DNA of 64,000 bases from an uncultured bacterium (GTDB taxonomy: Bacteria; Poribacteria; WGA-4E; WGA-3G): the NCBI GenBank assembly GCA_964652195.1, contig CAZZBB010000012.1:36537-100536 (forward strand), in the 5' to 3' direction. The translations under genes and the position numbers were made by a program. Of this stretch, positions 6,948-31,778 are shown piece by piece. A model generated the notes under the pieces. The model saw only the letters and a program-made list of their open reading frames with translations, ran no database searches and had not been told where the DNA came from. How positions within the stretch are numbered: the stretch's first letter is position 1; each line of letters opens with the position of its first letter.

Positions 6948-7706
6948 GTGGAATCAATAAGTGGTATCTCGAATGAATTTATTCGAGAAGAAATTGAAGA
7001 ATATCTTGAGCGTCCTGAAGAAAAAGACAGATTTGTTGATATGTTTTCGGCTGCCTCTTCAAAGATGCAAGATATTGCAGCTGCATTAATAGATGGGGAT
7101 CATCATACAGTTGATGAGTTAACCGAGCAAGCACTTGATGATGGAATTGAAGCATTGGAGGTAATGGATGATGGTCTTATCTTAGGTATGGGTATAGTTG
7201 GTATAAAATTCAGAGAGAATGTTATATTTGTTCCTGAAGTTCTTGCCTGTGCACGCGCAATGAAGGCTGGAATGAACCACATTGAACCAATTCTATCAGA
7301 TTCTGGGATAGACCCTATAGGCACTGTTATAATGGGAACAGTGAAAGGGGATTTACATGATATTGGTAAAAACCTGTGTATTATGATGCTAAGAGGAGCA
7401 GGATTCGTGGTTCATGATTTGGGAGTGGATACATCTGTAGATGAATTTTTGGATGCAGTTGAGGAATTTGAAGCACCTATATTAGGAATGTCTGCATTGC
7501 TAACAACAACCATGCCAAACATGGGGAAGACTATTGATGCATTTATTGATGAGGATTTACGCGAAGAGGTAAAGATCATGGTTGGTGGGGCACCAGTAAC
7601 ACAGACATTCGCTGATGATATGGGTGCTGATGGTTATGGTAAAGATGCATTAGAATGTGTTGCCTTAGCAAAAGAATTTCTTCAAGAAACAGATGATGAC
7701 TGGTAG
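6948..7706 (+). CDS. Corrinoid (B12)-binding protein of the MtbC/MttC/MtgC type
   Basis: The N-terminal helical B12-binding_2-like region is followed by a Rossmann B12 domain. That domain carries DxHxxG (GDLHDIGKN) and MLRGAGF...LGVD...SALLTTT. Confidence 0.8.
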   Translation: MESISGISNEFIREEIEEYLERPEEKDRFVDMFSAASSKMQDIAAALIDGDHHTVDELTEQALDDGIEALEVMDDGLILGMGIVGIKFRENVIFVPEVLACARAMKAGMNHIEPILSDSGIDPIGTVIMGTVKGDLHDIGKNLCIMMLRGAGFVVHDLGVDTSVDEFLDAVEEFEAPILGMSALLTTTMPNMGKTIDAFIDEDLREEVKIMVGGAPVTQTFADDMGADGYGKDALECVALAKEFLQETDDDW

Positions 7707-7721
7707 TTTCTATCTTAGTAT

Positions 7722-9626
7722 ATGAAAAAAGTTGATAAAAAAGAGTATGAAAAAAGACTCAACAAAATCACTGAGATTTTTGAAGAGCTTGTAGTTCATG
7801 CCGATGAACAAGCGACCTATCGCTGTCCATACAAGGACAGAAATGACCATTGTACCGCTAAATTTGGATGTCGAAATCAACGAAAAATTGATAAAGGTAC
7901 AGGGTTAAAATGTGTTGGTGACGATAAATTAGACTACCGTACAGCATGGGAAACAGAAAAATCTGCAATCACGGAAACATTAATCGAGAAGACTAACGCT
8001 ACTATTTCCTGCGACGGTAAATTTTATCAACTAACACCAGGAAAAACTGTCTTCGATTATGCTGATGATTTAGCAGTTCAAGTTCCTACATCCTGTTTCC
8101 GTACAGGACAATGTCATGAGTGTATTGTGGAAATTAAAAGCGGTATGGATAGTTTGCGACCCCCTAACGAGGTGGAAGCTTTCCTCCGAGAAAACTATCG
8201 TTTAGCCTGCCAATCTGTTGTTCTTGATGTTGATCAAGATATAGAATTTGCTCCACTCCGTCGTTCCCCCCGCATACTTACCCAAACTACATCAGAACAA
8301 GATAAATTAGAACACATCAACCCATTTGTTACCCACCAAGATGGGACAGTATACTATAAAAATGAACCCGTAGATAAATTTCGAGGACATATCTATGGTT
8401 TAGCTATAGATATTGGTACAACAACTGTCGTGGCTAGTCTTGTTGATTTAGAAAATGGTAAGGACGTTTCTGTGAGTTCATTTGAAAATCCACAGCGTTT
8501 TGGTGGTAGTGACATAATGCACCGTATTTCATACGATGCAGAGTTTGAAGGGGAATTGAGAAAATCCTTATTGGCTGCATTAAATAGTGAAATTATGGAG
8601 ATGTGTGAGAGATTAGATATTGTTCGACAGGAGATTTATGAAATTGTGGTTGCTGGCAATACTACAATGAGAGACATCTTCTTTAGACAGGATGTTCAGA
8701 GTATAGGTCAAAAACCGTATAAATCCATTATTGAACATGAGCTTAATGATGGGTTGCGTATGAGTACTTCACTAACTGAAAAATCTCGTCGTCTTGGGAT
8801 AAGATCTAATCCGAAGGCAATGGTTTATAGTTTACCATTAATAGCGAGTCACGTTGGTGCTGATGTAGCAGCAGATCTGATTGCAATGGATATGCTAAAT
8901 CAAGATGATATTGTCATGTTAGTAGATGTAGGAACAAATACTGAAGTAATTGTTGGTAATAAAGACCGAATGGTGGCGGCCTCGTGTCCTGCTGGTCCTG
9001 CGTTTGAGGGTGGTGGCATAGAATATGGAATGCCAGCTTATCCTGGAGCAATCGAATCAATTAGATTGAATAATGAAGAAATTGATTATCGAACAGTAGA
9101 TGATGAAAAACCTGAAGGATTTTGTGGGTCAGGATTAATTTCATTACTTGCTGAGTTATTACGTACTAATCAGATGAATCCAAAAGGGGTCTTTGCAGAT
9201 AAAAAGCAAAAGATATTATCTATTTTACCTGAATATGGGATTACTTTCTCACGTGAGGATGCAAGTAATTTAGCCCAAGCTAAGGCCGCGAATTATTGTG
9301 GTCAGTATATCGTACTAAGACAGTTCGGTGTATCCCCAAAAGAAATCAGCAGACTGTATTTAGCTGGTGGATTCGCAAATTTTGTAGATTCTGGTGAGGC
9401 AATTGATATCGGGTTTCTGGCACCAGTTCCTGAAGAACGAATAGAAAAAATTGGTAATGCAGCCTTAGCAGGAGCAAAGTCAGTGTTACTATCTAAGGAA
9501 AAACGTCAAGAAATAGAGGCATTAGTCAAAAACATAGAGCATATTGAACTTGAAACAACATCTGACTTTTTTGATGTTTTTGTTGAGGGTTGTCAATTTA
9601 AACCTATGCCTAAGGATATAAGTTAG
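7722..9626 (+). CDS. RamA/RACo-like reductive activase of corrinoid proteins (2Fe-2S ferredoxin + ASKHA ATPase, DUF4445)
   Basis: The N-terminal Cys cluster is CRNQRK...C...CFRTGQCHEC...LACQ. An ASKHA/actin-fold region follows (GLAIDIGTTTV, VDVGTNTEV). It sits immediately after the corrinoid protein. Confidence 0.7.
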   Translation: MKKVDKKEYEKRLNKITEIFEELVVHADEQATYRCPYKDRNDHCTAKFGCRNQRKIDKGTGLKCVGDDKLDYRTAWETEKSAITETLIEKTNATISCDGKFYQLTPGKTVFDYADDLAVQVPTSCFRTGQCHECIVEIKSGMDSLRPPNEVEAFLRENYRLACQSVVLDVDQDIEFAPLRRSPRILTQTTSEQDKLEHINPFVTHQDGTVYYKNEPVDKFRGHIYGLAIDIGTTTVVASLVDLENGKDVSVSSFENPQRFGGSDIMHRISYDAEFEGELRKSLLAALNSEIMEMCERLDIVRQEIYEIVVAGNTTMRDIFFRQDVQSIGQKPYKSIIEHELNDGLRMSTSLTEKSRRLGIRSNPKAMVYSLPLIASHVGADVAADLIAMDMLNQDDIVMLVDVGTNTEVIVGNKDRMVAASCPAGPAFEGGGIEYGMPAYPGAIESIRLNNEEIDYRTVDDEKPEGFCGSGLISLLAELLRTNQMNPKGVFADKKQKILSILPEYGITFSREDASNLAQAKAANYCGQYIVLRQFGVSPKEISRLYLAGGFANFVDSGEAIDIGFLAPVPEERIEKIGNAALAGAKSVLLSKEKRQEIEALVKNIEHIELETTSDFFDVFVEGCQFKPMPKDIS

Positions 9627-21695: not shown

Positions 21696-22027
21696 ATTTA
21701 CACCTCTAAAGTGTGCAATTTTATTTTTTTGGATTTGTTATTATCTTGTTATACCATTTCTGATAATTAAAGTCACTTTAATGTAGCATAAACTTTCAGT
21801 TTATACCGTATTTCAATATCTGCATTACTACTATTCAAAGGTTGTTTGATACTGCCTAACCTAAAAGTTATGGATAAAAAAGAGACAGTTTCATTCAGAA
21901 ATAAGATTAGAACTCATAGTCGTAAATTGAACATTTAATCCTAAATTCTTAGATGATAAATCGTGAAAATGTTGTGTTTTTCCCGGTGGCGAAAAAGTGA
22001 CGAAAAAGGGGAAAAGTTACACTTTTT

Positions 22028-22044
22028 GACACATTGTGTGTCAT
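22028..22044. promoter_or_regulatory. Perfect palindrome TGACACA-N3-TGTGTCA (operator-like)
   Basis: Seen directly. It lies in the 860-bp non-coding region upstream of the minus-strand envelope cluster. It is flanked by repeated AAAAAGTG/CACTTTTT and TTGACA motifs. Confidence 0.3.
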
Positions 22045-22318
22045 TGAAATTGGTGTAAATTACCCCTCTAACCTCTGTCATAGACTGACTTTATCCCACT
22101 TTGAATTGACTATATAAGAATTTCCAAAAAGTGTGATTTTGTGTTTTTGTTGTCCTTACGGATTTTGTATTTTTCAAACTGCATATTAAAGCTGATTTTT
22201 TGACATAAAGTATATTTTGTATTTAGGACGTTTTTATAGATAGTCATCATTAATTCTCTTATTATTTACTTCCCATTAAGGTGGCGAATTCCATACTCGG
22301 ATTCGGCGTTGATTTGGT

Positions 22319-22336
22319 GAATGCTAAACAGCATTC
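22319..22336. repeat. GAATGC-loop-GCATTC hairpin repeat (family member)
   Basis: GAATGCTAAACAGCATTC. Related copies lie at 34358-34375 (GAATGCCTTAGGGCATTC) and 37922-37939 (degenerate). Confidence 0.45.
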
Positions 22337-22557
22337 ATACCGCTGATTCATTGATTTCACTCTTAGTTTGCGTGAAAAAGATGTACAAACTGGATGTTTG
22401 TGCTAAAAAGTAGCTTTTGGTAATGTTAGTTGTTAGCTATAGATATATTCTTCATTTTATTTTCAATTTTTTAGAAAAATGTGTAAAATCATCATTTGGT
22501 AGGGTTAACACTAATAGCAATTATTTTACTGTCTTTACAAGATGATACCATGAGAAA

Positions 22558-23259
22558 TTATGATAGAAGGGAATCAGGGATAATATTGCAGAGTTCTGAG
22601 ATTTCATTGATAGTGGTACCGTTCCAATTTTCAACATCTGATCGATGTGGGTCATAGGCATCTGATAAGTTTGTGCGTATGAGAATTGGTTGCATACCAA
22701 CAGTTGATGCACCGGTAAGTTCTTCGCTACTCCCATCCCCGACATAGATACATTCTTCTGGTTTGACATTTAGTCTTTCACAAGCTATTTCGTATATGCG
22801 AGGGGATGGTTTCTTGATGTGTTCTTCACAAGAAAATATGGGGGTATCAATGTATTGTGCTAAGGGAGAATTCGGATAGAGCATTGGAACGGTATTGTTG
22901 CAATTAGTGATTAACCCGAGAAGATACCCTTTACATTTTAGTCGATTTAACCCTTGTAGCACTTCAGTTTTGGGGATTAGGGAATTCCTTGTAAATTCAT
23001 TATTGATTGCAGATATTTTTTCCATTTGGGTTTTATTGACTGAAACATTTAGACGACGTCCTATTTCTTTGATGTGTTCTTCCGCAGAAAGTTTTCCTAA
23101 AGATCTATCATTGATGGTTTCTGCCTTTATCTTCCAAAATTTCTGATACGAAACATTAAGTATTTTTGCCATTTTAACCAATACGGGGTCATATACTTTT
23201 CTGCTGAAGATTGGGACTAAAGTGCCGTATAGGTCGAATATGATGGCTTTATATTGCAT
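22558..23259 (-). CDS. HAD superfamily hydrolase
   Basis: Motif I is IIFDLYGTL. A C-terminal VGDGSSEE...G motif is present. Confidence 0.7.
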   Translation of the reverse strand: MQYKAIIFDLYGTLVPIFSRKVYDPVLVKMAKILNVSYQKFWKIKAETINDRSLGKLSAEEHIKEIGRRLNVSVNKTQMEKISAINNEFTRNSLIPKTEVLQGLNRLKCKGYLLGLITNCNNTVPMLYPNSPLAQYIDTPIFSCEEHIKKPSPRIYEIACERLNVKPEECIYVGDGSSEELTGASTVGMQPILIRTNLSDAYDPHRSDVENWNGTTINEISELCNIIPDSLLS

Positions 23260-23325
23260 TCTTCTTTTTGATTATATTTCATAAGTCGAATATATTACGT
23301 ATCTTTGTTTTTGCATTGCCCTATA

Positions 23326-24081
23326 TTATTTTGAAACAATTGAAGTCGGGAAAGCATCGTAAGTTTTTCCGTTTATTTTTCTACCCCGTTTTGATTTTTG
23401 GACCCCACCCCATTGTTTAAAGAAGAAATGTACCTTTTCCTTTTCGCATAGATCTCGGATATCAATAACCCATTTCTCTTCCATTTTACGTGCCCCTGGA
23501 CCTGATTCTCCTCCAACAATAACCCAATTAATCTTAGTTAGATCTAAATCTGGTAAAGGACCGATAAGCGGTTCAAGTGATAAGAATTTTACTTTTGCAT
23601 TGGTTTCTCGTAGAGCCTCAATTCTATGTATGACACGACTATCTTCAACACTTACACCCATCCAGACGTTTGGGGGCCATGACAATTCCGAATTATATCT
23701 TAATAATTGTTCTGCACGTTTAGTCAAAATCTGGAATTGGTGCCAATATGCTTTTTCCATAACATAGAACACTTCTTTGATATATGATAATTCAATCTTT
23801 TCATGAAAGAGATCGCTCATAGAATTTACAAAGATCCGTCGAGGTTTTTTCCATTTTAGCGGTTGATTAAGGAGTGAACGAACTGGTTGTACTTTCTGTG
23901 TCCATTGAGGCCCGGCTTTTGTGTTTTTTGCAAAACCTTCATACGCTAATCCTTTACCAGAAAACCGTGCTGCTATGCGTTCGGCATAACAGAACCGACA
24001 TCCTTCAGAGACACGTGTGCAACCCCGTACTGGATTCCAAGTAGATTCTGTCCATTCGATGCTTGATGATATGGTAGCCAT
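23326..24081 (-). CDS. Phage Gp37/Gp68 family (DUF5131) three-Cys-motif protein
   Basis: The N-terminus WNPVRGCTRVSEGCRFCYAE carries a C-x6-C-x2-C motif. Size is 251 aa. Gene pairing matches this family. Confidence 0.65.
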   Translation of the reverse strand: MATISSSIEWTESTWNPVRGCTRVSEGCRFCYAERIAARFSGKGLAYEGFAKNTKAGPQWTQKVQPVRSLLNQPLKWKKPRRIFVNSMSDLFHEKIELSYIKEVFYVMEKAYWHQFQILTKRAEQLLRYNSELSWPPNVWMGVSVEDSRVIHRIEALRETNAKVKFLSLEPLIGPLPDLDLTKINWVIVGGESGPGARKMEEKWVIDIRDLCEKEKVHFFFKQWGGVQKSKRGRKINGKTYDAFPTSIVSK

Positions 24082-24112
24082 TTTTTATCTCCAACGAAAT
24101 TTCTAATGATTA

Positions 24113-25030
24113 TTAATTAGAATGTTGAGCTAATTCTTTTAGAAGAATGTCTTGTGCAATGTTCACTGCTGTAGGAGCCCCTTTTGGGTTACCTGCAGCA
24201 AAACATAATAGGTATAAGGGGACATTTTTTGAATTACGAAGTGGTAAGGGTTTTTCGGCAACACCACTAAATATTTCTTTTAACCTTTTCACGAAATACC
24301 GTTCAATTTCTATAAATATATCACCAGTCTTTACCCACTGATTTTGAACTTCAAACATTGGAATCTGTTGAGCAATTTTGTAGAAAACGTCATACCAAGT
24401 CTCATTACCAAAAAACAGATTCAATTTTTCTTGAATCGAAGGACGAATATCACCATTCCTTTTTAGTAATCGATTTACGGTGCCAATTGGAAATAATAAC
24501 CAAAGATCAATAGCCTTAGTTTTAGCAATAGATTGAATAGTCTTCCATTCAACCTGCATTCCAAAAGGATCAAGAAACACTAATGCTCGATGCATTCCCC
24601 ATTCTTTATTGCAAAAATCATCCAAGAATGTATTCGCATCAGATTGAAGACATTCTATATCATCTGGTAAGAAGTCTTGTTTTTGTACAAATTCATCTTT
24701 AAGTTTCTTTAATTCTGAGAAATTGTGTTCGTCTTGTTCTATAAAGAAGTATTTTTGGAATCTTGGTTTTACTTCTAACGCATTTCGAACAGATCCTTGT
24801 CGAAAATTCAGTATTTCCTGAGAAATGAGTTCAGGAAATAAAATCTCTTTTTGATCTTCATCAAGTTTTAGTTCTCTATAACCAGTTCCGGCAAAAGCAT
24901 CTACATAAGCGAATTTGAAATTTTGCTTGTTCATTATTGTTGTATAGGCACTTAAATATTTGCTTACACAATTCAACTTTTGCTCTGTCCAGCTTCCACC
25001 GAAAACCTGACCAAAGCTTTTCATCTGCAC
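24113..25030 (-). CDS. Partner protein of the Gp37/Gp68 family (TcmP-like); methyltransferase-fold-like
   Basis: Encoded 32 bp upstream on the same strand. Contains VDAFAGTG, which is like MTase motif I, and FLDPFG, which is like the DPPY motif. Identity as TIGR04474 TcmP is recalled, not computed. Confidence 0.5.
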   Translation of the reverse strand: MQMKSFGQVFGGSWTEQKLNCVSKYLSAYTTIMNKQNFKFAYVDAFAGTGYRELKLDEDQKEILFPELISQEILNFRQGSVRNALEVKPRFQKYFFIEQDEHNFSELKKLKDEFVQKQDFLPDDIECLQSDANTFLDDFCNKEWGMHRALVFLDPFGMQVEWKTIQSIAKTKAIDLWLLFPIGTVNRLLKRNGDIRPSIQEKLNLFFGNETWYDVFYKIAQQIPMFEVQNQWVKTGDIFIEIERYFVKRLKEIFSGVAEKPLPLRNSKNVPLYLLCFAAGNPKGAPTAVNIAQDILLKELAQHSN

Positions 25031-25283
25031 CTCTAAAAAATAGACTTATTGAACTAAGAGTATATAATATATTATTACGAACTGTCAATTAAAATTATCA
25101 TGTTGTTTATTATTTGAGGGTGTTTTTGTGGAATTATGGAATCGAACCGATGGTATTAGGTATAGACATAGCACCAGTGGCATGGAATGTGTATAGTTAG
25201 TTCGTGGATTCCTGAGTCTAAGACAGAAGGGCAGCATGCGCGTTTGGCATGCTGCATGAGGTTTTGTAAGTATGCTTAGTGAT

Positions 25284-25306
25284 ACACCTTTCGCACCTCT
25301 GGTGCT
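25284..25306. repeat. 23-bp repeat ACACCTTTCGCACC(T)CTGGTGCT, copy 1
   Basis: Contains the GCACC-N3-GGTGC hairpin. Copies 2 and 3 lie at 30076 and 30127, and an inverted degenerate copy at 59207. Copy 1 sits at the left edge of the GC-rich island. Confidence 0.7.
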
Positions 25307-25606
25307 GAAGATACATGAAGTAGTATTATTTTTCTAAATTGATGCCATTAGATATAACATTACTGATAGTGGTGGCAAAAAGCACACGCTTGTAATTGGT
25401 CGCAGTATATATGCAAGGGTTAATGGTAAATGGAAGTATCAGACAGGTTAGTGGTTAGAAGCTAAAAAAATTAAAAAATGGTTTGACAAGCATAGCAGCA
25501 ATTAACTACACTATATTAGGTTTTGATACAATTACGGAGCAAAATAAGCGTAGGTTCAGCAAGAACCTACGCTTATTATAGTGCTTTGCAAAACCAGAGG
25601 TTTCAC

Positions 25607-26107
25607 ATGAAATATCAATTGGTAATCCAAGACCTTAGTATACCGGTGCCAGGTGTACCTTCGTGGAGTATACCCTTATGTTCTAACCATAACGTTTACT
25701 TTGGTTGCTTAGGGCATATAGCCGAGGAGGATATAAAAACAAACCGTATAGATAGCCAATTTTATAATGGAGAAGATACAGCTATCGTCTTAGATATTGA
25801 TATAGATGCCAAAGTCGTGAGACACACCTGTTTGGCCCGTAAAAAAGAGACGACTGTGCAGTCAACAGTGGCGTTGGGTATAGGTGATGATATAGTGGAT
25901 GCGGGGGCTAAATTCACAGTAGGTCAGACGACGTATATAGCGATAACCGAGAGTGTAAAAGAGACGGTTAATACCCCTGTGGTTTCGCTAAGAGATAGTG
26001 TATATGCCGGCGTAGATTTTGATCGTCGTGCGCTATGCTCTGCCCACGCGGATTTTGATTTTGAGGGCAATGATTTTGACGAAGGTTCGGTCTGGTATCA
26101 GCCTTGA
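25607..26107 (+). CDS. Hypothetical protein
   Basis: An internal ATG at 25607 follows an AGAGG RBS; the ORF track starts at 25523, but a strong hairpin at 25544-25575 falls inside that longer ORF. No recognisable domain. It is the first gene of the GC-richer island. Confidence 0.4.
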   Translation: MKYQLVIQDLSIPVPGVPSWSIPLCSNHNVYFGCLGHIAEEDIKTNRIDSQFYNGEDTAIVLDIDIDAKVVRHTCLARKKETTVQSTVALGIGDDIVDAGAKFTVGQTTYIAITESVKETVNTPVVSLRDSVYAGVDFDRRALCSAHADFDFEGNDFDEGSVWYQP

Positions 26108-26172
26108 ATAACTTTTAGATGCGACTTGGCACCCCGGTTTATACTGTCGGGGTACCCTAAAGTAGAATTCCC

Positions 26173-27792
26173 ATGAGAATAAAACATGCTTTTACAATAC
26201 TTTTTGTTATCCTCTTTGGCATTAGTGTTTTTATCTTTTTACGAAGTTCTAATGTCCTTCCCAATGGTGATAAACTTGTCTTTCTCAATGGTGATAAACT
26301 GAAACCGAGAACTCCGGATGGTCCTGTCTCCACGTTAGAAAAAGCGGCGCGTGTGGCGTTGCATCCACTCGCAGCAGATTGGAAAACAGTTGAAGCAGCA
26401 ATGAAGCAGCGTGTTTTATCTTGGGAGGATTGGGCTCGGAAAACAGTTGAAATCGGGTGTGCGATGGACGTGCTGTATGGACATATAAACACCCCTGAAG
26501 AGGTTGCAGCGGCACGCGAAAAACAGTTAGCGATACAACTGAAATGGGCTGCCGACTGTGAATCTAGAGGGTCTATTCTTCCTAACTATCCTTTTGAGAT
26601 TCCGAAGGTTTCCCCTAAGAAGCGGTTTGACTACGAAGGACCTCAGACGAGCGAAGCACTGCTGGCAGCGTTTGATCGGAAGTGGATGGAACGTTATCCG
26701 CAATCGGTGGATTGGGACGCACATTATCCCAAAGCCGCCTGGATTGACCGAATTGTGAGTCTGGGCGGTGAAGTCCAAAGTTACGGCGATTATAGTTTTT
26801 ACCTTAAATTGCGCAGAGACCTTATCAAACACAAAGAGTCCCCGCACAAATGGCATAGTGGGGCGTTCGGTATCCCTCCAACAACGAACTTTGAGGAATA
26901 CGAAACAGGCTATATCAATAGAAAGATTTGGGAAAATGATATACGCAAAGAGGTTCGCTCTAACTACCCTGACGAGCCCAAGATTACAACCTATTTCCCC
27001 AGTGATCAACCTGATAAATACCTTCCTGTAGTAGGTAACATGACGTATGTCTACAGAAAGCCGAATAGCAGTGCAGTGAGAACCTATGGTAAATTGCTGA
27101 CTGATGAAGAGGTAAAGGACCTGAGAAATAAAGGCATAGAACCGAAGGATGTTGAAATTGTCTACATTGATGACGAATACAATGTCCTTACCGAAAAACC
27201 GAAACCCTATAACCATCAAGAGTGGTTAGAAAAAAACTCTTATGACATTGTCCCCGAAGGACTCCGTGCGCCGGATGGCACCATCGTGTCCCCTGAGCGT
27301 TATCAGGAAATAAGAGGTCAAGAGATGCCTTATGAGACGCGGCAAAGGTATGATGAATATATCGGTGATTCCCCTGCTGCTGTGGATCCTGCTGCTGCTG
27401 AGGCGGAACGCCGAGCCGTATTAACCCGCGAAGCTGCCCGTGCGGAATTTGAACGATTTAAAGAGGATATGCGCCAAATAGAAAAGTTTCAGTCTATGGC
27501 AGCAAACGAGGTATCCCGTAAGTTTGCGTTGGAGTTTCTGTCTCAATACACGCCGAAGTCCGCCACGGATAAACGGCTCCAAACGGCACTGCAAACGATG
27601 TTTCAACGTGGGTTTGATGACGGGCTGCACAGCCTGCGAAAAGACGACCCTGCCCTGGCAGCAGAGTTAGAACGGCAGCTTGCCGAAACATACAGACCAC
27701 CACAACCGCAGTTGCGACGACTAAAGACCGTGCCCCAAAAGACCGTGCCCCCTAATCCAGCGGAGACACCTCCCGCAGGGGATACGGACTAA
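26173..27792 (+). CDS. Hypothetical 539-aa protein with N-terminal membrane anchor
   Basis: Long ORF with about 50% GC and a hydrophobic N-terminus (AFTILFVILFGISVFIFL). The antisense strand also carries long ORFs, as expected for GC-rich DNA. No motif recognised. Confidence 0.5.
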   Translation: MRIKHAFTILFVILFGISVFIFLRSSNVLPNGDKLVFLNGDKLKPRTPDGPVSTLEKAARVALHPLAADWKTVEAAMKQRVLSWEDWARKTVEIGCAMDVLYGHINTPEEVAAAREKQLAIQLKWAADCESRGSILPNYPFEIPKVSPKKRFDYEGPQTSEALLAAFDRKWMERYPQSVDWDAHYPKAAWIDRIVSLGGEVQSYGDYSFYLKLRRDLIKHKESPHKWHSGAFGIPPTTNFEEYETGYINRKIWENDIRKEVRSNYPDEPKITTYFPSDQPDKYLPVVGNMTYVYRKPNSSAVRTYGKLLTDEEVKDLRNKGIEPKDVEIVYIDDEYNVLTEKPKPYNHQEWLEKNSYDIVPEGLRAPDGTIVSPERYQEIRGQEMPYETRQRYDEYIGDSPAAVDPAAAEAERRAVLTREAARAEFERFKEDMRQIEKFQSMAANEVSRKFALEFLSQYTPKSATDKRLQTALQTMFQRGFDDGLHSLRKDDPALAAELERQLAETYRPPQPQLRRLKTVPQKTVPPNPAETPPAGDTD

Positions 27793-27982
27793 ATGAAGCA
27801 TCTGATACATTGGAGCAGCCTCGTGCTGCTCCTTATCGGGGTGCGGACTACTTCTATAGCCGGACCACTACAGACGTAGCTTCTCTGTGAGTACGTCACT
27901 GGGATGAGATAGACGTGGCGGCTATCCAAAGAGACTATCAACCTTAGAGACAGAAGAACAGATATCAGAGTATCTGCTGTGG

Positions 27983-28845
27983 GTGCTTCTCTTTGTACCG
28001 ACACTTTACCTCTTTTCACCGCCCTATCGTAGTGGCGGGGGATGGACAACCCATGCCACCGCTTTTTTACTCGCCTCCCCTATCGTCATGCTACTGCTAC
28101 GCACCGGACGGTATTTTCTGACACGCACACAGCACCCCTTTGCAAAGGTTGTCACAGAAAAGATGTCCGCACGCGGTATCTCACTGGTTCTCTGTGCCAT
28201 ATGCATCCTCAGCGGAATTGCTTATATCGTGCTTGTGCGGGATACATTTTGCACAGGATACACCAATATCAAGAACACGTATCTAACGCGACGACAGAAC
28301 AAAAACCATTAGATTTTCTAAAAACATACAACGTGACACACATACTTCTCAGTGAAGAAGATGTGCTGAACATCGCTTCTCTGCACACGGATGAACAAGA
28401 CGAATACCTAACTTCTATGGTGAGACTACTGCCACGCTCTTATACCGGCAGTACACATGCCAGATTGATACCGGCACACAAAAAAACGTTGCTCAGTTTT
28501 GTGGAGATCGATTTCTATCACAAACCAACTACCGCCACAGCAAAACTAAAAAACGGTAAAACAGTAAATATCGGATACGTCAAGTCCGATAGCACAGCAG
28601 AGAAAAAAAATGAAAAATACGGGGGAATGCTACATCTATTCGATCCAAAAACACACCAAGAAGCCATATACTACCTATCCCCGCAGATTTGGAATAGTTT
28701 CGCTATCAAACTATTTTTCCGAAACCAATATAGCAAAGCGTTTGTGCCCGTATATCCACAACAAACAGGAAACGCAAAAGTCAAAATATGGGAGATACAG
28801 TATCCGACAGATATAAATGAAAATCTGAAATATCTCGAAAGGTAA
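27983..28845 (+). pseudogene. Probable frameshifted gene (hypothetical membrane protein)
   Basis: ORF 27983-28312 reads as a membrane N-terminus. ORF 28042-28845 is protein-like only after about 28300 (KPLDFLKTYNVTHILLSEEDV...). Its first 80 codons are His/Arg/Cys-rich out-of-frame noise. A +1/-1 shift near 28290-28315 would join the two halves. Confidence 0.35.
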
Positions 28846-29358
28846 ATGAAAATGATACGCATCTTGAAACAATGCTGCATATATGGCGGGATCCTTTTCT
28901 TTGGACTTGTCATTACAAATGCGACACTACAACGATTGGTAAAACCAACACCGATAAAAGTGTACGTGATACCGAAAACAGAAAAGAAAGAATATATAAA
29001 AAGAAATACAAAACTCTATGAACACCTAAAACCGAAACCGATTGACCGGCAGAAAGTATTTGATAACACAATCATTGAGAATAACATCTTCGCACCCCTC
29101 GGATACAAACCGCCCAAAAAAACACACACTTATAGACTCGTCGGAACACAGATACCAATCGGGAGAGAAACAGAGGCAATAGCGATATTACAAGAGACCA
29201 CCGGCGAGAAAAATATGCTGAGCGTTTCCATCGGAACAAAAATAGCACAGGACACAGTGGTCATGGACATAAAACCCAAGCAGATAATCATCAAAAAAGG
29301 GAATAGACGGACCCTCCTGAGGTTAGAGACATGGCTACTCCTAAATAACAGAAGGTAG
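28846..29358 (+). CDS. Hypothetical single-TM protein (weak GspC/PilP-like pattern)
   Basis: N-terminal TM (CCIYGGILFFGLVI). The C-terminal region RLVGTQIPIGRETEAIAIL...IIIKKGNRRTLL is reminiscent of GspC/PilP beta-domains. Low confidence. Confidence 0.4.
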   Translation: MKMIRILKQCCIYGGILFFGLVITNATLQRLVKPTPIKVYVIPKTEKKEYIKRNTKLYEHLKPKPIDRQKVFDNTIIENNIFAPLGYKPPKKTHTYRLVGTQIPIGRETEAIAILQETTGEKNMLSVSIGTKIAQDTVVMDIKPKQIIIKKGNRRTLLRLETWLLLNNRR

Positions 29359-29367
29359 GCACACAGC

Positions 29368-29989
29368 ATGAAAGCAAACGCAATTACGAGCACACGCATC
29401 GTTCTCACATTTATGCTCATCGCAATGTTCGGGGAAAATATATATAGATATGGCAGCCACAGCAACAATTCCACTGATCTTCATACTCGATGCCATTGAC
29501 GGATATGTCGCACGAAAGTATAAACAGGAAAACGCCTCCGGCGCCGTCTTAGACATTGCAGCAGATAGAATTATTGAAAATGTATTTTGGATTTACTTCA
29601 CCGCAAATCAGGTGATCCATTTCTGGATGCCGGTCGCAGTACTCACACGCGGATTCGTTACGGACGCAATACGCAGCTTCGCACTCAAAGACGGAAAGAT
29701 CCCTTTTGAAATGAACACAAAATATTGGACACACGCAATGACAAGCTCACGCATCTCACGCGCATGCTCAGGAACATCAAAAATGAGCGCATTCTTCGCA
29801 ATGGCAGCATTACTCGCTATCAAAAATCAGCAGATACACACCCAGCAGCTCGAGAAACTTCAGACAACAACTCTTATACTCGCAATCACCGCTGTCGCAA
29901 TCTGTATACTACGAGGGATACCTGTCATAATTGAGGGGCGACATCAAAAAAGCATTCAAACAATAATCTGGGTTATACTATTCATGTAA
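29368..29989 (+). pseudogene. CDP-alcohol phosphatidyltransferase family gene, apparently frameshifted
   Basis: From 29368 frame 1 gives MKANAITSTRIVLTFMLIAMF, a typical N-terminus, then a stop. From 29450 frame 2 carries D(x)2DG(x)2AR(x)8G(x)3D(x)3D (LDAIDGYVARK...GAVLDIAADRI). The shift falls in AAAATATATATAGATATGG. Confidence 0.5.
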
Positions 29990-30075
29990 TACCATTTCTA
30001 ATTAATTTTTGTTCCATTACCTAATGTTACTATAGTTTGGACAATTTTCGTAATTTCTTGAACAACTGTATACAT

Positions 30076-30601: not shown

Positions 30602-31183
30602 TTATCGATTTTCAAAGGCAGTAATGTCTGCTTCGTATTGAAGTGTCCAACCAATTTCATCGAGTCCGTTTAGTAGACAGTACTTTTCAAAGTCGCCTAT
30701 CTCAAATGTGTGGGTAGTTCCATCAGGACAAATTACCGATTGTACTTCGAGGTCAATCATCAATTGATAGCCTTCTGTGTCTTGTGCTGCTTTGCTAAGT
30801 TCTGTGATGATATCTGCTGGTAATGAGACCGGTAGGATTCCATTCTTATAGCAATTGTTGCGGAAGATGTCTGCAAAGGAGGGTGCGAGAACGGCTTTAA
30901 ATCCGTATTGCTGAAGTGCCCAGGGGGCATGTTCACGAGAACTACCGCAACCGAAGTTTATTCCAGCGATGAGAATACTGGCGTCAGCATACTTGGGTTG
31001 GTTCAATATAAAATCTGGATTTGGATCACCGTTTTCAAGATACCGCCAATCGTTAAAGAGAAATTCACCGAATCCAGTACGTTCAATTCGTTTTAGGAAT
31101 TGTTTCGGGATAATCTGATCGGTATCAACATTAATTCGGTCAAGAGGTACGACGAATCCAACATGTTCTTTAAATGCTTCCAT
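30602..31183 (-). CDS. leuD: 3-isopropylmalate dehydratase small subunit
   Basis: Shows [17 protein letters not shown] and [12 protein letters not shown]. Confidence 0.9.
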
Positions 31184-31575
31184 TATAACACCTCAATGGG
31201 TTCTTTTCGTTTCCTTTCAGTTTGATCGAAGTCTGTATCGAAACTAATGAGTTGCATCTCATATTTCGCAGCGACAGCGTATTGGTATGCATCGTCAAAG
31301 TCAAGATTGAATTTATCTGCTATGCGTTCCAACGTTTTAAGATCTTCTGGGGATAATGATAGGATGCCAACTCCGTCAACAATTATGTCCTCAAGAAACG
31401 AATTAAAAAGCGTAAAATATTTCAATCGAAACAGAATAATCCCTATAGAATGTAGGGACAGATCCGTTATGTAGATTGTGCTCAAGTCGTTAATTTGTAA
31501 GAATGATTGGACATCATCCTTTTTGTCTTGTCCCAACAAAGCTTCAAGGAAGATGTTAGTATCTGCGAGGTACAC
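31183..31575 (-). CDS. PIN-domain toxin (VapC-like)
   Basis: [12 protein letters not shown] fits the PIN N-terminal Asp motif. A GTG start at 31575 follows GGAGG and overlaps the antitoxin stop as TAGTG; the ORF track extends to 31656. Its stop overlaps the leuD start. Confidence 0.6.
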
Positions 31576-31778
31576 TATTCCCTCCAATCTGACGCTTTTT
31601 TCTGAAGTTCGAGGGCTGTAAACTGGTCTCGAAACGCTTTTAATCCACCAATCCATTCTAAGTTTGGTTTTTTCTTCCGTTTTGAACTTTTTTTTGTATG
31701 TAAGAAATCAATGAAGTGAATGACTTCTTCTTGGAGTTCCGGAGGAAGTTCCCTAATTTTTTCAATGATAGATTCCAT
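31575..31778 (-). CDS. DUF2281-like antitoxin
   Basis: 67 aa. MESIIEKIRELPPELQEEVIHFIDFLHTKK matches the DUF2281 pattern. It is translationally coupled to the downstream PIN gene. Confidence 0.55.
   Translation of the reverse strand: MESIIEKIRELPPELQEEVIHFIDFLHTKKSSKRKKKPNLEWIGGLKAFRDQFTALELQKKASDWRE

Follow-up and report, generated by a model that had tools for sequence, protein, structure and literature searches.

We examined a 64,000-nucleotide stretch of DNA from an uncultured bacterium of the Poribacteria (GenBank assembly GCA_964652195.1, contig CAZZBB010000012.1, positions 36,537 to 100,536; hereafter the window), focusing on two neighbouring genes on its minus strand. One encodes TcmP, the three-Cys-motif partner (24113-25030), a protein predicted to have an RlmJ-like class I methyltransferase fold; the other encodes a DUF5131 (Gp37/Gp68) three-Cys protein of 251 amino acids (23326-24081), which appears to be a non-canonical member of the radical S-adenosylmethionine (SAM) superfamily. 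At every locus surveyed, TcmP is accompanied by a radical-SAM-type gene. We give an about even chance to the reading that the two proteins form a mobile, self-contained module of two SAM-dependent enzymes by which a base of nucleic acid, most probably DNA, is modified, and that the role of this module is self-marking, or else protection connected with restriction and defence against phages. An earlier note on this DNA, made from its letters alone, had recognised a Gp37/Gp68 (DUF5131) protein paired with a TcmP-like protein at 23326-25030, and hidden Markov model searches with PF07505 and TIGR04474 strongly matched both.

The pairing was surveyed at 80 genomic TcmP loci from Poribacteria, Chloroflexota, Acidobacteriota, Cyanobacteria, Bdellovibrionota, Nitrospirota and other groups. 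DUF5131 adjoins TcmP at 71 of these, as expected for the conserved two-gene module that had been proposed, lying directly downstream on the same strand at 68 loci and, in the form of a divergent DUF5131, placed convergently at 3. At the 9 loci without DUF5131, a canonical radical SAM gene (PF04055, CxxxCxxC) stands beside TcmP; this partner resembles the PA0069/Rv2578c 'DNA repair photolyase' (photoproduct-lyase-like) families, and is divergently transcribed in 8 cyanobacteria and located downstream in 1 Verrucomicrobiota genome. TcmP thus has a radical-SAM-type neighbour at 80/80 loci, and the pairing is obligate. This constancy is the strongest indirect evidence for radical SAM chemistry in DUF5131 and for cooperation between the two proteins, and the replacement of DUF5131 by a canonical radical SAM enzyme argues that DUF5131 truly carries out chemistry of this kind. 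In addition, across 48 pairs, the identity of TcmP to its window counterpart rises and falls with that of DUF5131 (r = 0.72). DUF5131 shows the higher conservation in 38 of the 48, with 5 Poribacteria loci combining a 74-78% identical DUF5131 with a 51-58% identical TcmP.

No conserved third gene was found at the 80 loci. The genes beyond the pair differ even among the cyanobacterial loci with the canonical partner (glycosyltransferase, FAD oxidase, alpha/beta hydrolase, phosphorylase), and the MacB/FtsX, HlyD, glycosidase and ZIP transporter genes that do recur were rejected as parts of the module, their recurrence reflecting lineage synteny within the Poribacteria. As a separate observation on the canonical partner, in three cyanobacterial loci (L041, at 7227-9191, L047 and L059; L numbers are our labels for loci) its gene is split by a LAGLIDADG intein of ~330 amino acids right after CxxxCxxC; 5 other cyanobacteria have an intein-free partner of 322 amino acids, 69-74% identical to the copy in L053.

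The DUF5131 protein of the window is an unambiguous member of its family, matching PF07505 at 315.8 bits (gathering score 28.9; E 2.5e-94) with residues 6-245 aligned to positions 2-243 of 243, and also matching phrog_2045. The C-x6-C-x2-C motif that the earlier note had pointed out corresponds to C21, C28 and C31 (23989-24021, minus strand), the presumed [4Fe-4S] ligands; these cysteines are invariant in alignments A2 and A4, including 12 DUF5131 sequences reaching down to 37% identity. Their spacing can change, to C-x3-C-x11-C in an Anaerolineae variant. Further invariant blocks are SMSD (87-90), Q-x-LTK (117-121), W-x-G (140-142), S-x-EPL (168-172) and FFK-x-W (220-224), and conservation is strong throughout: the best 120 database clusters show 74-80% identity.

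Several lines of evidence connect DUF5131 to the radical SAM enzymes. TIGR04471, 'radical SAM mobile pair protein A', matches it at 4.9e-21, which is under the equivalog cut-off and yet clearly homologous, and profile comparison with hhalign aligned its cysteine triad with CLHGCTFC of a canonical radical SAM partner (probability 50%, E 1.6e-4). An AlphaFold model built with 44 homologues is a beta/alpha barrel (predicted local distance difference test score (pLDDT) 74, predicted template modelling score (pTM) 0.78) and has the partial TIM-barrel of the radical SAM core fold. In line with these results, RadicalSAM.org places DUF5131 in the radical SAM superfamily as subgroup Megacluster-5-2, beside spore photoproduct lyase (5-3) (PMC9477430). 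From sequence and model together, we regard DUF5131 as a radical-SAM-like, non-canonical enzyme. Compared with the spore photoproduct lyase or 'DNA repair photolyase' group (PA0069/Rv2578c; TIGR04470/TIGR04471), it has C-x6-C-x2-C rather than CX3CX2C, lacks a PF04055 match, is shorter at 251 amino acids and gives no indication of a lesion-repair role.

The window TcmP in turn matches TIGR04474 of NCBIfam at 202.9 bits (cut-off 53; E 8.7e-60), its residues 14-293 covering positions 2-260 of the 263-position profile. TcmP forms a large family, with 4237 clusters at 50% identity when matches of E up to 1e-3 are counted, and the length of its members is uniform (~290-305 amino acids). We sought informative domain fusions among its members and found none; the 552-amino-acid P0242 of the representative library, the only TcmP of apparently double length, consists of one sequence repeated in tandem, head to tail, and is probably an assembly or gene-calling artefact. 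The predicted model has a class I methyltransferase fold (pLDDT 72, pTM 0.77), weakest at residues 48-78. Searches of the PDB by sequence and by profile with both TcmP and DUF5131 returned nothing meaningful.

The nearest characterised relative of TcmP appears to be RlmJ, the methyltransferase that forms N6-methyladenine (m6A) at position 2030 of 23S ribosomal RNA (rRNA) (PF04378; PDB 6qe5, 2oo3). An alignment of 62 diverse TcmP sequences (A3) matched E. coli RlmJ in hhalign with a probability of 82% (E 1e-5, 145 columns), the control comparison with RsmJ reaching 2.8%. Motifs I, II, III, IV and VI align, with DAFAGTG opposite DTHAGAG, GS80 opposite GS100P, FIE98 opposite E118, D131-A-N opposite D143-G-F, LD154PFG opposite ID164PPY(E) and DLW177 opposite ALW195. 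Thus the conserved TcmP residues S80, E98, D131, D154/P155 and W177 correspond to S100, E118, D143, D164/P165 and W195 of RlmJ, where S100, E118 and D143 bind SAM and D164, which is essential, and W195 are catalytic or stack on the base (PMC3814359). RlmJ also depends on K18 in its N-terminal motif X helix (PMC3814359), and TcmP has an invariant K18 in an apparently equivalent helix, in a region that lies outside the hhalign alignment. Across the 62 sequences, K18, Y25, D44, A47, G48, L107, F152, D154, R187 and F277 are invariant, and P155, G157 and W177 are conserved in at least 90%.

Both motifs that the earlier note quotes for TcmP are present. The motif-I-like VDAFAGTG (24881-24904, minus strand) occupies residues 43-50, as the SAM-binding glycine loop. 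FLDPFG (24560-24577, minus strand) occupies residues 152-157, as the counterpart of the D/NPPY catalytic motif; the aromatic residue of this 'DPPY-like' motif is not shared family-wide and only D-P-x-G is conserved. The tyrosine of motif IV in RlmJ is itself not stacked on the base (PMC3814359).

Weak Pfam matches among the 62 TcmP sequences fell most often on RsmD, RlmJ and Trm1, and no other methyltransferase family was hit by two or more of the sequences; PF04378 itself was reached at E 0.02 by just 2 of the 62. RsmD, RlmJ and Trm1 are amino-methyltransferases acting on nucleic acid. Judging from these sequence comparisons, TcmP looks like a catalytically competent nucleic-acid amino-methyltransferase that is related to RlmJ yet stands outside the RlmJ family. 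The two share a fold in which motif I is followed by an insertion, and probably also a lysine-bearing helix at the N-terminus, but their homology is remote, and TcmP has DPxG rather than DPPY in motif IV, a shorter insertion, an extra C-terminal region of ~100 residues and a constant radical SAM partner, which RlmJ lacks. The divergence of TcmP is centred on residues 51-80, 101-140 and 221-240, the first of which takes the position of the substrate-binding helical subdomain in RlmJ, a pattern that would suit a specificity subunit.

Outside the window, the pair is found in contexts that range from restriction operons to housekeeping regions. In L046 (Blastocatellia) and L057 (Thermodesulfobacteriota), four genes of the same strand, only a few bases apart, follow one another in the order Res-TcmP-DUF5131-Mod, where Res is a BPTD_3080-family endonuclease (1177 bits) and Mod a Type III methyltransferase (PADLOC, 1019 bits). 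Here the pair looks like an accessory modification module of Type III-like restriction-modification (R-M) systems; compared with a Type III system proper, it encodes neither nuclease nor helicase, and neither Res nor Mod is present near the window pair. Related arrangements occur in L050, where an AAA_15/OLD-like ATPase is also present, L076 and L017. A PADLOC survey of 135 representative neighbour families, carried out with no background control for enrichment, returned strong matches to HmaB/HmaC, a Type IIG enzyme, DndD/PbeC, DruE, a UG5 reverse transcriptase, PD-T4-6, mad2/mad3 and several R-M methyltransferases. On the Sinorhizobium meliloti plasmid pSymA, TcmP follows the validated defence gene hna at a distance of 79 nucleotides downstream, and the two are induced together. 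DUF5131 is convergent and lies one gene further on; between TcmP and DUF5131 is a minus-strand open reading frame (ORF) of 415 amino acids (L090:7903-9150), a departure from the usual direct adjacency.

Many neighbours are plainly housekeeping genes, such as those for glutamate and glutamine synthases, histidine biosynthesis and AcrB. As to the co-occurrence with defence islands raised in the earlier note, some loci have R-M or defence genes close by, and many other copies, the window's among them, lie in housekeeping surroundings. In Poribacteria, the pair is surrounded by MacB/FtsX/HlyD transporter genes or has a glycosidase gene next to it. In ten Poribacteria loci (L001, L002, L004-L008, L014, L086 and L087), the pair is found in the middle of an array of 4-5 paralogous MacB/FtsX permeases of 433-438 amino acids with an HlyD-type adaptor adjoining, and this insertion point recurs across many Poribacteria genomes.

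The distribution across phyla is patchy, with identities of 50-70% linking Poribacteria, Anaerolineae, Acidobacteriota, Cyanobacteria and Bdellovibrionales. TcmP is scarce on plasmids (11 of 72,556 records), among which are conjugative plasmids, and the gene order is reversed in Acetobacter. Among 50,697 phage records, DUF5131 was detected in 176 and a TcmP-like protein in 5. Gordonia phage Fairfaxidum carries a pair made up of DUF5131 (gp42) and gp43, a 398-amino-acid 'methyltransferase' that is a TcmP homologue (hhalign 93%), and the two genes are located between the integrase and the immunity repressor. Where phage DUF5131 stands alone, its gene belongs to early, replication or lysogeny regions and in no case to a structural module. 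Embedding in prophage structural modules, the context that would have spoken against an island gene, was thus rejected: homologues occupy R-M or defence loci, housekeeping regions and the early, replication and lysogeny regions of phages instead.

Taken together, these data can be arranged into a tentative mechanism. TcmP, as a distant relative of the m6A methyltransferase RlmJ, would bind SAM, capture a flipped-out base and probably methylate its exocyclic amine, with target specificity set by segments 51-80, 101-140 and 221-240. The cysteines of DUF5131 would hold a [4Fe-4S] cluster with which a second SAM is cleaved to a 5'-deoxyadenosyl radical, and DUF5131 would next work on the nucleotide that TcmP targets, whether to build further on the product of TcmP or to prepare its substrate. 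The resulting mark, which we infer to lie on DNA, might serve in self/non-self discrimination or in DNA protection, with a possible anti-phage effect; a mark of this type would explain the recurrence of the cassette in R-M operons, beside defence genes and in the lysogeny regions of temperate phages. Within this scheme, the window pair would be a stand-alone operon with its own promoter-like site. A bolder reading, which we consider possible but doubtful, is that the pair represents a new DNA self-marking or restriction chemistry, in which it installs an undescribed hypermodified base or the radical enzyme damages DNA without the TcmP mark, the cassette being exchanged by bacteria and temperate phages as a two-gene immunity or anti-restriction unit.

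A number of observations weigh against a DNA-modifying defence module. On the side of DUF5131, there is no match to PF04055 at E 0.01 or better, the cysteine motif is not the canonical CX3CX2C, and the cysteine loop is modelled poorly. On the side of TcmP, a Pfam scan of the window protein gave no match at E 0.01 or better, and none to PF04378; a shallow TcmP alignment (A1) compared with RlmJ reached an hhalign probability of 1%, which is not significant; and the residue after D-P in motif IV varies in the family (DPF, DPC, DPT, with DPC and DPT in distant members). Both structural models, moreover, are of moderate confidence only. Many copies, including that of the window and most of those in Poribacteria, have housekeeping genes around them and no defence gene nearby, and most phage DUF5131 genes occur without TcmP. 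Full-text literature on DUF5131, PF07505, Gp37Gp68, TcmP, TIGR04474, PDC-M41 and PDC-M30 gave annotations and lists with no functional study, in agreement with the earlier note's statement that no function had been shown. Finally, RNA is a possible substrate too, because RlmJ acts on rRNA and does not methylate single-stranded DNA (PMC3814359).

This last point leads to the main rival explanation, a housekeeping RNA modification in which TcmP methylates an rRNA or transfer RNA (tRNA) nucleotide and DUF5131 modifies it further, in the manner of MiaA followed by MiaB, with no relation to foreign DNA. Its attraction is that the closest folds and weak family matches of TcmP (RlmJ, Trm1, RsmD) are all RNA methyltransferases, that RlmJ rejects single-stranded DNA, and that the pair in the window has native base composition, a divergence from its closest relative about that of the adjacent leuCD genes and, as in most Poribacteria, housekeeping neighbours. 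Nevertheless, a housekeeping function fits poorly with the patchy cross-phylum distribution at 50-70% identity, with copies in phages and conjugative plasmids, and with those embedded between res and mod of R-M operons; fast-evolving segments in TcmP would be surprising if its target were an invariant rRNA site, and the active site of RlmJ itself resembles those of DNA m6A methyltransferases (PMC3814359). We therefore consider RNA modification unlikely, although it deserves to be taken seriously.

The kinship of DUF5131 with spore photoproduct lyase raises another alternative, DNA repair, in which DUF5131 would reverse a lesion by radical chemistry of the photoproduct-lyase kind, and TcmP would be an auxiliary, non-catalytic protein that flips the base and recognises the lesion. 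TcmP, however, appears to retain all the SAM-binding and catalytic positions of an active methyltransferase, which a recognition subunit would not need; R-M operons and phage immunity regions are not normal sites for repair genes, and no other repair genes recur nearby. These arguments make repair improbable. Slightly less probable still is a small-molecule antiviral pathway, with DUF5131 acting on a free nucleotide as viperin does and TcmP methylating the product to give a chain-terminating or toxic analogue: the sequence affinity of DUF5131 is with the photoproduct-lyase-like group and not with viperin, TcmP has its relatives among polynucleotide methyltransferases that flip the base and carry a motif X at the N-terminus, not among small-molecule enzymes, and the variable segments of TcmP resemble target-recognition elements. 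A base-modifying module most probably directed at DNA is the reading that we prefer.

As a family, the module is not new, being already catalogued as the PADLOC candidate PDC-M41. Both components are matched nearly end to end by the adjacent, co-oriented genes of the window (A, TcmP, E 2.2e-110; B, DUF5131, E 2.4e-107). The PDC set comprises 145 candidates, described by its authors as untested and derived from genes embedded inside BREX, DISARM and Type I R-M systems (bioRxiv 10.1101/2024.01.29.577857). Embedding in R-M operons was seen here independently; the window copy, in contrast, is neither embedded in nor beside a recognisable defence system. The sibling candidate PDC-M30 shares the B component and has a longer and more distant TcmP-like A component, as in the Gordonia phage gp43. 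New in this work are the radical-SAM-type neighbour at all 80 TcmP loci, the lack of a conserved third gene, the R-M, Hna and phage-immunity contexts, and the comparison with L084 given below. The window copy is an ordinary member of the catalogued family and contributes nothing unusual; the interest lies in the chemistry of a family that is abundant, strongly conserved and spread across many phyla, phages and plasmids. If radical-SAM-dependent DNA modification were to prove correct, it would be a new chemistry for epigenetic marking and phage defence. The analogy with RlmJ supplies candidate catalytic residues, and the natural four-gene Res-TcmP-DUF5131-Mod operons offer test constructs.

In the window, the tcmP ORF encodes 305 amino acids when read from the GTG at 25030. 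The protein is probably 303 amino acids long with its real start at the ATG at 25024, because that GTG forms part of a Shine-Dalgarno-like AGAGGTG and the ATG fits the starts of homologues. The two ORFs are separated by 31 nucleotides, and DUF5131 has a separate GGAGA ribosome-binding site. About 30 nucleotides upstream of the TcmP start lies a promoter-like TTGACA-18 nt-TATACT (25059-25088, minus strand), which has the top score within 22300-25600 (11 of 12 matches); it is a promoter candidate by positional plausibility only, because the 14 promoter-like sites of this region are no excess over the 13.3 in shuffles. A gene for a HAD hydrolase (22558-23259) begins 66 nucleotides downstream of DUF5131 and may be co-transcribed with the pair, since no terminator was seen between the two. 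It was rejected as a part of the module, being absent from the closest relative L084 and from other loci.

The pair is flanked on one side by transglutaminase-like, BatA/VWA, POTRA and DUF6785 genes, and on the other by leuD, a PIN gene and leuC. No Res, Mod or other recognisable defence system was found beside it, and no phage genes near it; a PADLOC scan of the HAD hydrolase, the ORF at 25523-26107 and a 539-amino-acid ORF at 26173-27792 gave no match. The closest relative found is the European Nucleotide Archive metagenome contig L084 (~87% DNA identity), with the order leuC-DUF2281-leuD-TcmP-DUF5131 followed by a Type IIG R-M enzyme. The latter (L084:4816-8565) is encoded on the same strand, has 1249 amino acids with N6_Mtase, Eco57I and Methylase_S domains, and stands where the window has the HAD hydrolase. 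In L084, leuD and TcmP are only ~350 nucleotides apart, whereas alignment of the two contigs revealed an insertion of 4.9 kilobases between them in the window (25136-30055), with a guanine-cytosine (GC) content of 0.42-0.50 against 0.30-0.39 around it. The pair thus does lie at the edge of a foreign-DNA region, as had been proposed. The pair itself appears, from sequence comparison, to have been inherited vertically with leuCD while the flanks of the locus turned over, because its GC content is local and its 87% nucleotide identity to L084 is about that of leuCD (86-91%).

Within the insertion, no integrase or transposase was found. Three plus-strand ORFs, of 539 (the ORF at 26173-27792 above, with a signal-peptide-like N-terminus), 267 and 170 amino acids, match no family in Pfam, NCBIfam or PADLOC. 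A 179-amino-acid ORF for a CDP-alcohol phosphatidyltransferase (29450-29989), aligning from residue 2 onward with the Pfam profile from its position 30, may be a 5'-truncated gene at the insertion edge. Elsewhere, an AT-rich stretch of 860 nucleotides (21696-22557, GC ~0.31) between the transglutaminase-like gene and the HAD hydrolase contains no ORF of at least 50 amino acids, no tRNA and no Rfam match, and no tRNA genes or Rfam families were detected in the window as a whole. Between leuC and leuD lies a toxin-antitoxin-like pair on the minus strand, consisting of a 67-amino-acid DUF2281-like ORF (31575-31778) and the PIN gene (31183-31656), the stop of which abuts the start of leuD; at the same position, L084 has the DUF2281 gene only.

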